Below are positions 2,450-22,725 of a stretch of DNA of 64,000 nt, in pieces. A program made the position numbers and the translations under genes. The stretch lies in the sequence record OR880646.1, one strand, 5' to 3'. The first letter of the stretch is position 1, and every line of letters begins with the position of its first letter. The notes below the pieces were generated by a model, which was given only the letters and a program-made list of their open reading frames with translations, was not told the DNA's origin and made no database searches. The DNA is from Escherichia phage ECP2301.

Positions 2450-3646
2450 TGTAATAATGTCAAACTGTTCTTTAAAGCAGAAGCTTGAATCTTGATGCTG
2501 ATACAAAAATTCATAAGCTTTTTCGCGTTCACGGTCATAAAGAGTTCGGTCAGATGACAGTTCTTTAATACGCTCAAATGTTGATTCCATGTCATTTTCA
2601 TCAAACCAAACGATACCGCTATCATGAGAAATTAACGGAGTATTATCAACGCGGAATTTTAAATTTTCGCCAGTAGATTTCCAAAATACTGGAATTGTTC
2701 CGCATGCACCAAGCTCGAGATGAGTATATTCTAAAGAACGTTGTAGATATTTTTTGTCCAACTTACTCAGCTGATAACCAAATCCAGATTTACTCATGCG
2801 TTCAAGCATTTCGCTATTTACATAACGGTCAAGAATTTGCGTTGGCAAATTAGGAGCAATTTTAATTTGGTCTACTTGATGAAGACGATAATACTCGTAT
2901 GGAATTCCTTTTTCTTTAATAGGAATGAACGCTGGAGAACGTTCCAGACCTTCCATAATAGTACTTAGTCCTGCAGGTTTAAGATGTTTTTCGTGAAAAT
3001 CAAACATCTGATAAAAACCTTTCCATGTAGTCGTACGACCAATCCAACGGTTGACATTCATGTTAATTTCAGAAACATCTTTCCAGTAGTTTGATCGAAC
3101 CTTCGCAATATCCATAGGAGGCTGAAAGTTGTATACAGTCGGTGCTTCTTCAATATCATCAAACAGAGAAACCGTTTCTGGATACCATTCTTTCATCAAA
3201 ACTTTATTAAAATCGCCATTATCAGAATGACTAAAAATAACATCAGCTCGACGAACAGTTTCTTCTAATCCCAAATTTCGGCGTAAAGAAAGAGAAGAAT
3301 GGTCATGTTGATAAACTACAACACGAACTGAAGGTTTAATGTTATCAATAATTTTTTTATAGTTATTAATAGTGTCTTCTTCGACTGAAGTAGCAGGAAC
3401 TGAATTGATAATTAGAATATCACAATCATTTACCAGCTTAAGTGTTTTATCGTATTCTTTTGCCAATAAAACCGGAATTGAAAATGATTTATAATCATGC
3501 GCGCAATTACGAGTAAATGATTTATCTTTAGCATAAACCAAAATTACTTCATGACCATTTTTAATAAACCAATCACGCTGCTCGAGAGAAAATTTAGTTA
3601 CACCGCAACCTTCAAGACCTCGAGCCATAAAAATGCATACTTTCAT
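2444..3646 (-). CDS. a-gt: DNA alpha-glucosyltransferase
   Basis: 400 aa, N-terminus MKVCIFMARGLEGCGVTKFSLEQRDWFIKNGHEV closely matches T4 AGT as recalled. Confidence 0.92.
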   Translation of the reverse strand: MKVCIFMARGLEGCGVTKFSLEQRDWFIKNGHEVILVYAKDKSFTRNCAHDYKSFSIPVLLAKEYDKTLKLVNDCDILIINSVPATSVEEDTINNYKKIIDNIKPSVRVVVYQHDHSSLSLRRNLGLEETVRRADVIFSHSDNGDFNKVLMKEWYPETVSLFDDIEEAPTVYNFQPPMDIAKVRSNYWKDVSEINMNVNRWIGRTTTWKGFYQMFDFHEKHLKPAGLSTIMEGLERSPAFIPIKEKGIPYEYYRLHQVDQIKIAPNLPTQILDRYVNSEMLERMSKSGFGYQLSKLDKKYLQRSLEYTHLELGACGTIPVFWKSTGENLKFRVDNTPLISHDSGIVWFDENDMESTFERIKELSSDRTLYDREREKAYEFLYQHQDSSFCFKEQFDIITK

Positions 3647-7042: not shown

Positions 7043-7351
7043 TTAATCTTCTATGATATCTCTATCATATCCAAGTGAAATGAGAGTTTCTTTGAAGTGT
7101 TTAATGTTCTTTTGTCTAGAATCATTGATGAAAATGACTGGATAACGAATGTTAAGAGATGTGAATCCAGCGCGTTTAGCAAGAGATACAATCAGTGGAC
7201 GATCATACTCAATCTTACCATTATTTGTAAGAACTTTATAGAAAGTAAAAGGAGCATTGAGCTCCTTTAGAAGTTTTGTAACTGATTGACATCCAGGACA
7301 ACGACCTACTTCATCTGGAATTCCATAGACTTCAATCTTGTTTTGTTTCAC
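7043..7351 (-). CDS. nrdH: glutaredoxin-like protein NrdH
   Basis: 102 aa with CPGC redox motif; position next to nrdG/nrdD as in T4. Confidence 0.85.
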   Translation of the reverse strand: MKQNKIEVYGIPDEVGRCPGCQSVTKLLKELNAPFTFYKVLTNNGKIEYDRPLIVSLAKRAGFTSLNIRYPVIFINDSRQKNIKHFKETLISLGYDRDIIED

Positions 7352-18067: not shown

Positions 18068-19036
18068 TTATTTCAGAAGAGTAACCTCAGCGATTTCTTC
18101 CCAACCGTTTTTGTCGGTCATAATAAAGTCAGCAAGATAAAGAGCAGTACGCAGTGAAACATTGCGTAAACGATTAACATTAACTTTCATCCATGATAAT
18201 GCTTTATAAGTTTCTTCATCAGAAAGACCGCGCTTTTGCATCATGTCAGTTGAAAGAATAACATCTTCAACTCTGACCATAATTTCTTCATTAGTGTGAA
18301 CACCCAGATCTAAATAAACCGAGCGGGACACTAATGCTTGTAAATGTGGAGCAAGTTTAGTACCACGGTCTAATTCGCGGTCAATGTCAACGTTTGTGAT
18401 AAAAACAATCGTTCCTTTAAATTCAAACTCACGCTCAATGCCTTTTTCTTCTAAGTAAGAAGACGCAGTGCTCCAGCAGACTTTACGGGTCTCTCCAGTG
18501 TCCAGAGCGGCTTTTAGAAGATTAAGAATGTCCATATCAGAGAAAACATCCACATCATCAATCAAAAGGACAGAATTCTCTTCACGATTATTCCAAAGCT
18601 GCTCATAAAGACCAATACCAGAGATTTTACCATTAATGCTTTTATATTCAATGTATCCAATATCATTTGCTTTATTTAAAGCTTTATCTAAAGAATACGT
18701 TTTACCAATACCTGCTGCGCCAGAGATAATCAATGAACGAATATTTCCATTAATAATACCATTCGTCATCATTCCCATAACATTAAATCTTTTATTAATG
18801 CGGGTTTTCATATCTTCATATGATTCTTTAACTTCTTCAACTTTTACACCATCATATGAAATATCTGATTTGTAAACCCAAACACCGCGACGCTTACCGT
18901 CAATTTCAACAAAAACTTTACCATCTCCTTGTGCATCTACCGGAGCATTATCTGGGAACCATTCGCCTAAGAGTTCAAAAGTTCCAGAGATTTCTTTACC
19001 GAAGTAGATACCCTTATTGATAGTTACAGTTTTCAT
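18068..19036 (-). CDS. AAA+ ATPase (Walker A GAAGIGKT, Walker B LLIDDVD)
   Basis: Start set at MKTVTINK (SD GGAG upstream); ORF-track N-terminal extension runs through the promoter leader. Confidence 0.75.
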   Translation of the reverse strand: MKTVTINKGIYFGKEISGTFELLGEWFPDNAPVDAQGDGKVFVEIDGKRRGVWVYKSDISYDGVKVEEVKESYEDMKTRINKRFNVMGMMTNGIINGNIRSLIISGAAGIGKTYSLDKALNKANDIGYIEYKSINGKISGIGLYEQLWNNREENSVLLIDDVDVFSDMDILNLLKAALDTGETRKVCWSTASSYLEEKGIEREFEFKGTIVFITNVDIDRELDRGTKLAPHLQALVSRSVYLDLGVHTNEEIMVRVEDVILSTDMMQKRGLSDEETYKALSWMKVNVNRLRNVSLRTALYLADFIMTDKNGWEEIAEVTLLK

Positions 19037-19054
19037 TTTATTCTCCAAATCCGT

Positions 19055-19105
19055 ATCAGTTGATAGTTGTATAGTACCATAAAGCTTTATGCTTGTAAAC
19101 CGTTT
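19055..19105 (-). promoter_or_regulatory. early promoter, TACTAT variant with conserved leader
   Basis: Minus strand GTTTACaagcataaagctttaTGgTACTATacaactatcaactgatacgg; near-identical copies at 17625-17665 and 34150-34186. Confidence 0.55.
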
Positions 19106-19128
19106 TGTGAAAAAATTTTTGAAATAAA

Positions 19129-19151
19129 AAAGGGAGCCCGAAGGCTCCCTA
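19129..19151 (-). terminator. intrinsic terminator (GGGAGCC-UUCG-GGCUCCC + U5)
   Basis: Plus aaaagggagcccgaaggctccc; minus RNA hairpin followed by UUUUU. Confidence 0.6.
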
Positions 19152-20165
19152 TCATTTATAATAACTTCGATGGTTTTCAAGATAAACCCTCTCAAGGAAG
19201 TCATCCCAGAAACCCATGTCTACTTTTTGCTGCATACCGTTCTTAGAAGCTTCAATGGATGCTGCTTCTACTTGATCGACCACATCTTCCAAAAACTCTT
19301 GAACAGTTTTAAATGGATGTTTACCCAACTTCACGTCAAGAATAAATGGAGCGTCTTGAAGTGGATAGACTAAGTCACCAGTTTTGTAAATTTCCAATAG
19401 TTGGAGTCCACCACGGCAAGCATGACTCAGAGCTTTCCAGTCAATGCCCTCATTCGCTTCAGCCTTACGAGCACGTTCGCCGTATTCAGCATCAAGTTTA
19501 TTCAAAGACTGCTTAAGCTCAATAAGAGAAAGCGTTGTTTGATATTTACGACCCAGCACAGTGTAGAACGTTTGTGGACCTGTTTTCTCATGATTATGGA
19601 ATACCCATTCACAGAATTCGTTCTCTGGAAGACGATGCTTAATATCTTCAACTTTAGTTCGACGCTGCTTAATGGAACCGTCTTCTTGGTAATCAACCCA
19701 TTGCTCAGGGATTTGATTAACTACTTTCAATACATCACGTAATGCGGCCAAACGAGAACCCTTGACGCCGTATTTAGAAGCTTGCTTGCGAACATATCCT
19801 AAATAGGATTTCATGTTAGTCGTATAAAAACGAGAACGGTTGTCTTGAATAAACTTCCATACATCAGGCAAATCAGATTTAACTACCAGTTCAGGTGGAG
19901 TGTGGAGCATATCCAATGCTACAGTTTCACCATCTGCTGCTAATTTAAAGAAATACTTAAGACTGTATAGTTCATGGTCAATATCATCTTTAGTGTTTTT
20001 AGATGATGTGTTGTTAGTGTTTTTACTCATATGCTCTTTAACATTTCCTATAAGAATATCACGAGCAGGAGGAACAAAGATTTCTTTAAAATCTACATCA
20101 GATTCTGGAGTAGAAGTTCCATAAAGATGACTACCAAAATAGCTTTTCATTACTGTTTTCATCAT
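19152..20165 (-). CDS. Pol-beta-superfamily nucleotidyltransferase (resembles the 'predicted nucleotidyltransferase' family associated with RNA-repair loci)
   Basis: 337 aa; N-terminal FGSHLYGTSTPESDVDFKEIFVPP fits GSx(9-13)DxD NTase motif; helical C-terminal domain. Confidence 0.6.
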   Translation of the reverse strand: MMKTVMKSYFGSHLYGTSTPESDVDFKEIFVPPARDILIGNVKEHMSKNTNNTSSKNTKDDIDHELYSLKYFFKLAADGETVALDMLHTPPELVVKSDLPDVWKFIQDNRSRFYTTNMKSYLGYVRKQASKYGVKGSRLAALRDVLKVVNQIPEQWVDYQEDGSIKQRRTKVEDIKHRLPENEFCEWVFHNHEKTGPQTFYTVLGRKYQTTLSLIELKQSLNKLDAEYGERARKAEANEGIDWKALSHACRGGLQLLEIYKTGDLVYPLQDAPFILDVKLGKHPFKTVQEFLEDVVDQVEAASIEASKNGMQQKVDMGFWDDFLERVYLENHRSYYK

Positions 20166-20623
20166 TCAGCCTTATATTCAATAACAGGACATACTTTAGC
20201 TTTACGCGCTTTTAAAAATTCGACGATAATAGATTTCTTGGGTTGAATAGGAGGTAAACCTTTATACGCCCTATCAATATTTTCTACATGTAAAGCATAA
20301 TCCTTTTTCCATTTATAATCTTTATATTTTTCATGCAGTTGTGCAGGAATAACAAATGAACCAATAATAAGTAAAACAAGCAAAATGGCAAGTATAAATG
20401 CTGATGGAATAAGAGTCCATAAACTACCAAAAATAAGCCATTTCTGTATGATTTCTGCGCAGATAATAGTTAGACCTGCGAGCATAGTACATCCGAATAA
20501 AGAAACGAAAAATGTAGGGATAACAATAGACCAAAAATACGCGCACAGTGTCTTAGGTCGTTTCCATTCGTCGTTAAACATTTTGAATAATTTATAATGC
20601 CAAGAGTTTTCATTAATAATCAT
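20162..20623 (-). CDS. integral membrane protein (3-4 TM helices)
   Basis: 153 aa with several long hydrophobic stretches. Confidence 0.6.
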   Translation of the reverse strand: MIINENSWHYKLFKMFNDEWKRPKTLCAYFWSIVIPTFFVSLFGCTMLAGLTIICAEIIQKWLIFGSLWTLIPSAFILAILLVLLIIGSFVIPAQLHEKYKDYKWKKDYALHVENIDRAYKGLPPIQPKKSIIVEFLKARKAKVCPVIEYKAE

Positions 20624-20625
20624 AA

Positions 20626-21147
20626 TTATCCTTTCATTGAAGGTGTAACAGTTGTTAAATACTTAATCATAGCTTCAGCTTCTGATTTTGATAATGAAAT
20701 TTCTCCATTGTTTTGACGAATAGAAATAAAATCCGGATGACGGTCACCACCAGCTTTTAAAATACACATATAAGTATCAGTTTCATCTTCAATATCTGAA
20801 ATAATTGAAGCAGTTCCACATGAATGTGGTTTTTGATAAATCAATGCAGCTTTTCTTCCACCGTTTGACTGTTCATAAACTTTTAACACATCAAACAAAT
20901 CGCTTCTTTTATCAATAGCTAAGATGTTGTTTTCATCTTCAATGTTAAATCCTTCGGATACTTCATAAAGTGTCACCCATAAATCGCCAATATCAATGAC
21001 AGCATTCACCTTTCCATGATTTTCAAGAGCATTACAAATTTTCTTAATTTCATCATAACTCATTTTAATAATATCATCTCCTTGAATAAGGAAGATGTCA
21101 TTTTTAAATTCAACACGAATTAAACCACTTCCACTTGAAATAAACAT
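20626..21147 (-). CDS. hypothetical protein, tandem paralogue A
   Basis: 173 aa; shares GFNIE motif and C-terminal KYLTTVTPSMKG tail with next ORF. Confidence 0.6.
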   Translation of the reverse strand: MFISSGSGLIRVEFKNDIFLIQGDDIIKMSYDEIKKICNALENHGKVNAVIDIGDLWVTLYEVSEGFNIEDENNILAIDKRSDLFDVLKVYEQSNGGRKAALIYQKPHSCGTASIISDIEDETDTYMCILKAGGDRHPDFISIRQNNGEISLSKSEAEAMIKYLTTVTPSMKG

Positions 21148-21153
21148 ATTTCC

Positions 21154-21711
21154 TCACTTTGAAATCATAGTTGGAATGACAGAATCAAGATAAGTCTTTA
21201 GCGCAATAGCTTCGTCTTTGGTAAATGTGACAATATGCGATCGAAAATCATCAATTTGACGAATAGTTAAGACATCACCATCTTCATAGCATTTTGATAC
21301 GTTTAAAACAGTTTCATCATTCTGATTGCAAGCGTTAGTAATAATAGCATTGCAATTTTTGAGCCATTTTAAACTATGTTTTCTTTCATTAGAATAATAA
21401 AAATATTTAATCTTATCTATAAAACTATCCCAATGAATAACTGATAAACATATTGACTCGCTTTCAATATTAAATCCTGGGCATGAAGAATAAAAATGAA
21501 TTTTATGCTCATCATTAATGCTTACAATTTTATCAGTATAAGGATTTTCAATTTGGGTTAAATGAATGATTTCACTAGGCGTAAAATACATCATATCATC
21601 TTCTTGCGTCAAACGATACATATTATTTACTTTTTCTATAGCTAATTCACCAAAAAGTGAACTAACTTCTAATACTAATCGTTTCATATTGATTCTCTTC
21701 GACTCACTCAC
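21154..21711 (-). CDS. hypothetical protein, tandem paralogue B
   Basis: 185 aa; GFNIESES and C-terminal KTYLDSVIPTMISK resemble previous ORF. Confidence 0.6.
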   Translation of the reverse strand: MSESKRINMKRLVLEVSSLFGELAIEKVNNMYRLTQEDDMMYFTPSEIIHLTQIENPYTDKIVSINDEHKIHFYSSCPGFNIESESICLSVIHWDSFIDKIKYFYYSNERKHSLKWLKNCNAIITNACNQNDETVLNVSKCYEDGDVLTIRQIDDFRSHIVTFTKDEAIALKTYLDSVIPTMISK

Positions 21712-21844
21712 AATTACATACTCCTTTGAATAATATCAATAATGTTGTTCACCAGATTATAAGTAAACATTGGGTAATTATATTGAATCATCACATACAC
21801 AACAAACAAAACTTTCATTCTCTTCTCCTTGGCAGTTGACAAGA

Positions 21845-21880
21845 TTACTATATCATAACCTTGCCAACTTGTAAACCATT
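21845..21880 (-). promoter_or_regulatory. early promoter (GTTTACa -35, TGaTATAGT -10)
   Basis: Minus strand GTTTACaagttggcaaggttaTGaTATAGTaatc. Confidence 0.45.
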
Positions 21881-22051
21881 AAATGACGTTTTCAATAAAA
21901 TTCTGAAGCTTTGTGTGAGCATCAACCATGATTTTCATTTCTTCCTTTGCGAAAGCTGTACCTCTTTCTCGAGCAGAATACTCATAGTCAGAAACTGCAT
22001 TAGCATATTCTTCAATTAGCTTCATTAAAAACATCTGCTTTTCAGTTTTCA
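21878..22051 (-). CDS. small hypothetical protein (not in ORF track, <60 aa)
   Basis: Hand-translated 57-aa ORF MKTEKQMFLMKLIEEYANAVSDYEYSARERG... Confidence 0.3.
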
Positions 22052-22236
22052 TTATTCCACCTAATCATTTCAAGATATTGAACTAACTTAGCTTTGGATT
22101 TATCCAAATCCTTTTTAGCTGCTTCTATACCATCGTATGAGTATCCTTCACAATGCTCAACTGCCAATTGGTATGAATCTATTTCAATATCACGTGCTAA
22201 TTTAATGATTTTTTCAAACTGTTCACGTGTTAACAT
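22042..22236 (-). CDS. small hypothetical protein
   Basis: 64-aa ORF. Confidence 0.45.
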   Translation of the reverse strand: MLTREQFEKIIKLARDIEIDSYQLAVEHCEGYSYDGIEAAKKDLDKSKAKLVQYLEMIRWNNEN

Positions 22237-22238
22237 AC

Positions 22239-22478
22239 TTAAACTCTCGTATTATGATCGATAATTTCATCAAGAAACATATCTAAAGCTTCTACAGCAT
22301 TATCAACTTTAGCTTCAAGTTCTTCGGCACCTTTATTTGCAATGCCTGACGAAAACCAAGCAAAGTCACTAAGTTCCTCATCTGCTTTGCGAATTAAAGC
22401 TACCAATTCTTTAATTTTATCTGCTTGTTCAATGCTAATCATTATTCCACCACATATGAAAGAGAAAATATTGCACAC
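22239..22478 (-). CDS. small hypothetical acidic protein
   Basis: 79-aa ORF. Confidence 0.45.
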
Positions 22479-22699: not shown

Positions 22700-22725
22700 A
22701 AAAAGTCTCCCGAAGGAGACTAATG
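22700..22725 (-). terminator. intrinsic terminator (GUCUCC-UUCG-GGAGAC + U6)
   Basis: Plus aaaaaagtctcccgaaggagac directly after stop of 22726-23112 gene. Confidence 0.6.

Follow-up and report, generated by a model that had tools for sequence, protein, structure and literature searches.

The closest described relative of the genes treated here is mobD.1 of phage T4 (Y05I_BPT4, NP_049711), which lies between mobD.2 and the nrdC.11 side. T4 mobD.1 gives an early RNA and an early protein, and Y05I has been detected by mass spectrometry (PMC9697503 supplement). MobD.1 is non-essential in the laboratory. A T4 deletion running from nrdC.11 through mobD.3 is viable (PMC9825161), and CRISPRi-ART knock-down of mobD.1 was scored 'Not Fit' (PMC11879866 supplement). 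In T4 the gene is present once and is followed by the mobD homing endonuclease. The GenBank records of RB32 and T6 label a second gene at this locus 'similar to mobD.1' and the membrane gene after it 'replaces mobD', so the paralogy described below is not new. Our search of the full-text literature on mobD.1, y05I, and nrdC.11 found no functional study. The RefSeq name 'Molybdopterin-guanine dinucleotide biosynthesis protein MobD' is a name collision without Pfam support and was set aside.

The DNA analysed here (the window) is a stretch of 64,000 nt from Escherichia phage ECP2301 (OR880646.1), a Tequatrovirus (T4-like) genome whose DNA in this region is 98% identical to that of the Tequatrovirus phages IME339, Sfk20, and ime09. 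On the minus strand the genes run in the order tk, rI.1, rI, rI.-1, mobD.5, mobD.4, mobD.3, mobD.2a, and mobD.2, and then the 185-aa ORF, the 173-aa ORF, a 153-aa membrane protein, nrdC.11, and nrdC.10. The two ORFs lie side by side inside the nrdC.11-to-rI interval, with the same gene order in ime09, RB32, and T6. This interval belongs to the hyperplastic nrdC-tk accessory region of T4-type genomes, in agreement with the initial annotation, which had placed two adjacent ORFs in an accessory island.

The first of the two (21154..21711, minus strand, 185 aa from a GTG) occupies the place of T4 mobD.1 and is about 84% identical to T4 MobD.1; its Pfam N-domain and C-domain fall at about 21388-21678 and 21166-21375. 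The second (20626..21147, minus strand, 173 aa from an ATG) corresponds to RB32ORF097c and its T6 homologue, with 93–94% identity and the same tandem layout, and differs from them in nothing of substance. Its N-domain, predicted to contain two beta4-alpha units, covers about 20857-21147, and its C-domain, predicted as beta5-alpha, about 20629-20856. Where T4 has one copy and then mobD, the window instead has this paralogue and the conserved membrane-protein gene (RB69ORF104c-like, phrog_944; 20162..20623, minus strand). Upstream of the pair is the mobD.2 orthologue (34 aa; 21714..21818, minus strand), which is 105 bp long as in T4.

Comparison of the two proteins by BLASTP with composition-based statistics showed 29% identity and 51% positives in 176 columns aligned end to end (E=5e-11). 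Since this alignment spans the full length of both, the similarity is not limited to low-complexity segments and represents true homology. Both proteins, like T4 MobD.1, carry PF24449 (T4_y05I_N) followed by PF24448 (T4_y05I_C) in N-to-C order, with scores far above the Pfam gathering cut-offs of 24.9 and 27 bits, respectively. PF24449 gave 118.6 bits for the 173-aa protein (E 2e-34) and 129.6 bits for the 185-aa protein (E 8e-38); PF24448 gave 82.1 bits (E 4e-23) and 75.7 bits (E 4e-21). PHROG 1502 was also matched by both (E 3e-66 for the 173-aa and E 1e-80 for the 185-aa protein). It is almost certain that the pair consists of two members of the T4 MobD.1/Y05I family, the 185-aa gene being the mobD.1 orthologue and the 173-aa gene the long-diverged paralogue RB32ORF097c. 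The initial annotation had called them paralogues of unknown function, and this description stands, including the shared internal motifs (EGFNIEDEN and PGFNIESES). The C-terminal tails it had regarded as near-identical have 9 of 21 aligned residues identical and are similar at most.

An AAGGAG lies 9 nt upstream of the GTG of the 185-aa ORF. An alternative ATG at 21687, eight codons in, would give 177 aa and is the start used in the ime09 annotation; in T6-type phages another gene is inserted upstream of MobD.1, so that the ATG must serve as the start there. The stop of mobD.2 precedes the GTG of the 185-aa ORF by 3 nt, the 173-aa gene starts 6 nt past the stop of the 185-aa gene, with a GAGG overlapping that stop, and the membrane gene starts 2 nt past the stop of the 173-aa gene. 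Across both the 6-nt and the 2-nt gaps the Shine-Dalgarno sequences overlap the preceding stops. Our consensus scan also identified a promoter-like site, TTTACA-17 nt-TATAGT (21847..21875, minus strand; 10/12 matches), which was the best site on the minus strand. It has a TG upstream of the −10 element, and its GTTTACA resembles the T4 early-promoter consensus. From its position, this predicted early-type promoter could drive transcription of mobD.2, the two paralogues, and the membrane gene. Judged by these signals, the two paralogues and the membrane-protein gene after them are probably co-transcribed and translationally coupled.

Upon tblastn search against 50,697 phage records, the 173-aa gene was found at no less than 90% identity in about 430 records. 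The MobD.1 orthologue was found at 80% identity or above in about 405 records and at 31–50% identity in about 310 further ones. The tandem pair is present in about 430 phage records and is the commonest arrangement in Tequatrovirus. The T4-type mobD endonuclease (at least 95% identity) was found in 47 records. Mosigvirus, Dhakavirus, and Gaprivervirus have a single-copy gene at the same position. An exhaustive HMMER search of 1.8 billion representative proteins gave only 21 clusters at 50% identity, which indicates that the Y05I family is small and restricted to enterobacterial T4-like phages, and a scan of IMG/VR gave only three loci, all near-identical.

The single copy of T4 can be explained from the junctions. 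According to blastn, collinearity between T4 and the window ends at 21129 and resumes at 20166. Past the mobD.1 stop, T4 still has a remnant of the 173-aa gene, namely its Shine-Dalgarno sequence and first 19 nt (ATGTTTATTTCAAGTGGAA), after which the mobD cassette begins; the remainder of the 173-aa gene and the membrane gene are missing. The segment replaced in T4 by the mobD HNH homing-endonuclease cassette corresponds to 20167..21128 (minus strand) of the window, as defined by the blastn comparison, the junction sequences, and the T4 annotation. The 19-nt remnant indicates that the two-copy arrangement is older than the T4 arrangement. The single copy of T4 is therefore derived, the mobD cassette having overwritten the second copy and the membrane gene. 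The locus is a clean small example of a homing-endonuclease cassette overwriting accessory genes.

The initial annotation had attributed the pair to local duplication and divergence under host-range or defence selection. The two genes are adjacent, co-oriented, in the same length class, and members of the same two-domain family, all of which a recent tandem duplication of this kind would produce. However, the copies are not each other's closest relatives. The N-domain of the 173-aa protein is only 21–23% identical to that of Tequatrovirus MobD.1, compared with 31–32% to the Dhakavirus/Gaprivervirus type. In neighbour-joining trees with 60 bootstrap replicates, built separately for the N-domain and the C-domain, Tequatrovirus MobD.1 and the Mosigvirus-type alleles formed a group without the 173-aa clade in 59 of 60 (N-domain) and 60 of 60 (C-domain) replicates, and Tequatrovirus MobD.1 was never the sister of the 173-aa clade (0/60). 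The 173-aa lineage is thus a deep branch. The gene-wide dN/dS values, calculated by the Nei-Gojobori method on 12 Tequatrovirus orthologues, were 0.21 for MobD.1 and 0.13 for the 173-aa gene, which indicates that purifying selection maintains both copies. PADLOC gave no hit for either paralogue or for the three downstream genes, and we found no experimental link to defence. A recent local duplication driven by defence or host-range selection is largely refuted by these results and appears very improbable. As far as the sequences can tell, the pair did not arise by recent in-place duplication; it derives either from an old duplication with losses in other genera or from a foreign allele captured beside its homologue.

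Recombination at this locus is visibly ongoing. Phage PE37 and some metagenomic alleles have a Mosigvirus-like N-domain on a Tequatrovirus C-tail, and the metagenomic protein P0010, with an N-domain 40% identical, a C-domain 79% identical, and 58% identity overall, is a genuinely divergent allele. A T2 paralogue that seemed to be another divergent allele ('56% identical') was rejected as an artefact of frameshifts in record AP018813. In six contigs the pair is replaced by a single in-frame hybrid (protein P0011) with the N-part of MobD.1 and the C-part of the paralogue. The crossover point, located from this hybrid and the blastn breakpoints, is the 10-nt microhomology GATGAAACTG, which is present in both genes of the window, at 21309..21318 within the 185-aa gene and at the equivalent codon position, 20778..20787, within the 173-aa gene (both minus strand). 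The locus is therefore also an example of tandem paralogues recombining into in-frame hybrids.

These hybrids, which collapse the pair into one gene in nature, could be taken as a sign that one copy is a decaying, functionless duplicate. T4 has lost the second copy, and both copies are frameshifted in the T2 record AP018813. This explanation is hardly credible, as the 173-aa ORF is intact, with 90–98% amino-acid identity, in about 430 records, its translation signals are intact, and its dN/dS is below that of MobD.1 itself.

The gene that follows the pair is conserved together with the C-domain. The 153-aa membrane protein has hydrophobic blocks at about residues 26–60 and 63–96 and a basic (+6) C-terminal tail. 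In all nine Tevenvirinae genera sampled (Tequatro-, Mosig-, Dhaka-, Gapriver-, Teguna-, Jiaoda-, Gelderland-, Kagamiyama-, and Karamvirus), a homologue of this membrane protein is encoded immediately after a gene ending in a Y05I C-domain, and the two genes usually abut or overlap. Gene content around this pair is variable, both further upstream (DUF7438 arrays, Phage_tudor, DksA-like, DUF7189) and in the interval from the membrane gene to nrdC.11. Two C-domain-only paralogues stand in tandem before the membrane gene in Salmonella phage SEA1, so that a two-copy state has evolved on more than one occasion. An Aeromonas phage (Emmerichvirinae) encodes the membrane protein downstream of an unrelated gene. 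Because gene order is strongly conserved among T4-like genomes, adjacency by itself is poor evidence that two products interact. Furthermore, an intact, expressed MobD.1 persists without the membrane protein in T4 and about 47 related records, indicating no absolute dependence on that protein.

For the 173-aa protein, AlphaFold2 run with an alignment of 18 sequences produced a model that could be used (pLDDT 77.7 overall, about 90 in the N-domain and 53–80 in the C-domain). The model obtained for the 185-aa protein (pLDDT 55) was too poor. The 173-aa model contains three units: beta4-alpha (residues 2–43), beta4-alpha (49–95), and beta5-alpha (100–167). The first two are consecutive beta4-alpha units in one domain (type I). 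As modelled, the protein would adopt a PC4-like/Whirly/PUR fold, which is a resemblance of fold and not membership of a family, and this fold is presumably the source of the Pfam label 'putative transcription factor'. The best structural neighbours were Pur-alpha, MRP1/2, Whirly, PC4, and YdbC, with SsgA and the DUF4176 chaperones also ranking high. A Foldseek search against the PDB did not reproduce the match: the best E was 0.04, none reached E≤0.001, and SsgA first appeared at rank 50. No Pfam hit to PUR (PF04845), PC4 (PF02229), or Whirly (PF08536) was found at E≤1 for the full-length proteins or the isolated domains. Sequence and profile searches of the PDB gave only noise (CsoS1D, E 0.78; NMD3, E 0.008). 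With neither a sequence-model match nor Foldseek confirmation, the resemblance is one of fold only. The viral BFVD search was uninformative, returning mostly members of the Y05I family and a few Bacillus phage proteins.

Some observations bear on the origin of the three units. When the internal repeats were compared by hhalign, repeats 1 and 3 matched weakly (E 0.012), with no significant match for any other pair. Stand-alone C-domain proteins of 74–83 aa exist. There are also shared weak hits to DUF7189, which is a 63-aa gene adjoining a C-domain gene in Klebsiella phage KpV477. A modular origin from a single unit fits all three of these observations.

According to the Pfam label, both proteins might be ssDNA- or RNA-binding regulators like Pur-alpha, Whirly, PC4, and ChmC, and this might extend to an RNA role shared with two neighbours, the RlaP nucleotidyltransferase (nrdC.11) and the ATPase (nrdC.10); the Pfam match of nrdC.11 is to RlaP, whose description places it in an RNA repair pathway. 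Nucleic-acid binding is known for the best structural neighbours listed above, and basic and aromatic residues are conserved in the C-domain (K99, K106, R144, K154, and a W/Y in strand 1). The PC4-like fold is predominantly nucleic-acid-binding (PMC7549692), and RNA binding has been reported for a Whirly-fold protein of a phage (PMC11077065). However, all 16 full-length members examined are acidic, with a pI of 4.1–5.8 and an N-domain net charge of −4 to −16, and the conserved N-domain motifs, L-T-Q-E-D-D and G-F-N-I-E-x-E, are acidic as well. This acidity argues against classic nucleic-acid binding. The known nucleic-acid-binding members of the PC4-like fold are basic, and its acidic members, SsgA and the DUF4176 chaperones, bind proteins. 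These acidic proteins of the same fold rank high among the neighbours too, and none of the PUR, PC4, or Whirly models matched the pair. We therefore regard a nucleic-acid-binding role as somewhat unlikely.

The T5 PC4-like protein (PDB 4bg7) and the chimallivirus ChmC are phage-encoded and belong to the fold superfamily predicted for Y05I, but they bind ssDNA or RNA via basic surfaces, a point established for ChmC with K/R mutants (PMC11077065), whereas the Y05I family is acidic. The acidic neighbours differ in other respects. The SsgA/SsgB-type Whirly-like proteins (PDB 3cm1) act in actinomycete cell division and the DUF4176 type VII secretion chaperones (PDB 9dct/9dcr) in Gram-positive secretion; each is a single domain, compared with the three units of Y05I, and neither has sequence similarity to the phage proteins. 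In layout, Y05I resembles the combination found in Pur-alpha (PURA; Drosophila repeats I-II, PDB 3k44; repeat III, PDB 5fgo/8chw), and its third unit, predicted as beta5-alpha at moderate confidence, would take the place of repeat III. Pur-alpha is the only known protein that combines an intramolecular two-repeat domain with a dimerising third repeat (review, PMC7549692). There is no detectable sequence homology between the two, and PUR domains bind nucleic acids while the phage proteins are acidic.

The reading that we prefer, and hold tentatively, is that the pair encodes acidic, dimerising three-unit proteins that act early as soluble partners of the membrane protein. It is proposed from the acidity of the family and of its N-domain motifs, together with the position of the C-domain gene immediately upstream of a membrane protein with a basic, predicted cytoplasmic tail. 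Each paralogue would be an acidic cytoplasmic protein of three beta4-alpha units with the PC4/Whirly/PUR fold, as the model suggests, and the first two units may pack into one domain like Pur-alpha repeats I-II. The third unit (Y05I_C), in which a strongly conserved helix reads F/L-T/S-K-x-E-A-x-A-L/M-x-x-Y-L-x-x-V-I/T-P-T/S-M, would probably pair with a second such unit, by analogy with Pur-alpha repeat III, to give homodimers or possibly a heterodimer of the two paralogues. This module may work during early infection, not as a transcription factor but as a soluble partner of the membrane protein with its two predicted TM segments, or as its regulator or chaperone, in a non-essential interaction with the host. 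For both dimerisation via the C-terminal unit and action with the adjacent membrane protein, which we infer, our confidence is moderate to low.

The retention of MobD.1 by T4 without the membrane gene would also agree with another explanation, that these are soluble early host-takeover or anti-defence proteins which bind and inhibit a host protein independently of the membrane protein, possibly as acidic nucleic-acid mimics, with the two copies covering different host variants. The proteins are early, non-essential, acidic, and small, and the hyperplastic accessory region in which they lie shows presence/absence and allelic mosaicism between phages. On the other hand, the dN/dS values of 0.13–0.21 give no gene-wide sign of an arms race, neither PADLOC nor any other search gave a functional hit, and the family is tiny, being confined to 21 clusters of enterobacterial T4-like phages. 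This explanation is in our opinion unlikely.

The pair is a genuine, anciently diverged, and selectively maintained tandem of the MobD.1/Y05I family, which is widespread and had been annotated before. As it stands, it matters little, being known already from hundreds of sequenced T4-like phages, from a Pfam-curated family, and from GenBank records of the paralogy. Its value as a lead is modest: MobD.1 is one of many expressed, non-essential T4 early proteins without an assigned function, and the leads are the predicted fold, an acidic character at odds with the 'transcription factor' label, and the conserved adjacency of the C-domain and membrane-protein genes. A bolder proposal, which we consider decidedly improbable, is that Y05I is a phage counterpart of the Pur-alpha architecture that has lost nucleic-acid binding, serves the conserved early membrane protein with two TM segments as an acidic, dimeric partner in the cytoplasm, and, in two-copy phages, forms paralogue heterodimers via the C-terminal repeats. 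If this were true, Y05I would be only the second protein family known with that domain combination, and the locus would represent a new early membrane-associated module of T4-like phages.

A natural in-frame hybrid of the two genes, in which the N-part of MobD.1 is joined to the C-part of its 173-aa paralogue, was found in six Logan contigs (positions 3001-3540 of the comparison loci L006-L008). The predicted product is 179 aa long. The junction is a 10-nt microhomology, GATGAAACTG, which is common to both genes and lies at 21309-21318 and 20778-20787 in the window. Hybrid formation at this sequence turns the two-gene pair into a single gene.

Our analysis also showed broken and mosaic alleles in other phages. 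In the T2 record AP018813.1 (locus L003, 1940-3019), frameshifts break both Y05I family members, and the 173-aa gene has both ends identical to those of the intact gene while its middle is out of frame. Either the genes have really decayed in this T2 stock, or the frameshifts are sequencing errors. In the Tequatrovirus PE37 (locus L009, 2504-4038), the MobD.1 allele consists of a Tequatrovirus C-tail fused to a Mosigvirus-like N-domain, and the membrane gene is cut down to its last 73 codons.

Genes possessing the C-domain only were identified in two further phages. The gene order in Klebsiella phage KpV477 (locus L022, 2314-3225) is a DUF7189 gene (63 aa), a C-domain-only gene and the membrane gene, and in Salmonella phage SEA1 (locus L023, 2501-3460) the membrane gene is preceded by two tandem C-domain-only paralogues. 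DUF7189 matched repeat 1 of the Y05I family weakly, and the Y05I C-domain weakly as well. A profile search of the PDB with the C-domain alignment (A6) gave the ribosome export factor NMD3 as a borderline match, with E 0.008 at about residues 157-219, which is probably due to chance.

A second and larger paralogue array immediately adjoins the pair. It is made up of mobD.2a, mobD.3 and mobD.4 (21879-22052, 22042-22236 and 22239-22478, minus strand; 21879-22478 overall), three tandem paralogues which all match Pfam DUF7438 (E 1e-15 to 1e-17). The interval between mobD.2 and mobD.1 in other Tequatroviruses contains one more DUF7438 copy and a Phage_tudor gene. Farther along, directly after rI.-1, is a strong bidirectional terminator-like hairpin (AGTCTCC-CGAA-GGAGACT, 22704-22721) with a T run behind it on the minus strand, and this hairpin stands between rI.-1 and the mobD.5 to nrdC early cluster. 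On the other side of the pair are nrdC.11 and nrdC.10 (18068-20165, minus strand). The former matches Pfam RlaP, an RNA-repair-associated Pol-beta nucleotidyltransferase, and the latter is an AAA/STAND-like NTPase, whose longest ORF (378 aa) overlaps the nrdC.11 end by 53 nt and whose product is annotated as shorter in related records.

Several RefSeq orthologues of MobD.1 and MobD.4, including NC_019503 mobD.1a and NC_000866 mobD.4, are labelled 'molybdopterin-guanine dinucleotide biosynthesis protein MobD'. We rejected this label as a collision with the T4 locus name, without domain support. The labels 'helicase loader', 'prohead core scaffold protein' and 'thioredoxin' in the mobD-region interval of RefSeq records look spurious too. 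A Tequatrovirus membrane gene with 90% identity is present in PV654520.1 (database match H164, 'Pseudomonas phage vB_PSGBLB0006'), a record that gives Pseudomonas aeruginosa as the phage host and whose host label or sample purity looks doubtful.

In T4 (NC_000866), a remnant of the 173-aa gene, namely its SD and first 19 nt, is kept at about 7195-7286 of locus L002, corresponding to 21129-21153 in the window. This leftover opens a 23-codon ORF (MFISSGTDMCYKCKAKLNETKNQ). The T4 mobD homing-endonuclease cassette is promoter-less, and because the TGA of the 23-codon ORF overlaps the mobD ATG, translation of the cassette may be coupled to initiation at the start site of the very gene that it destroyed.
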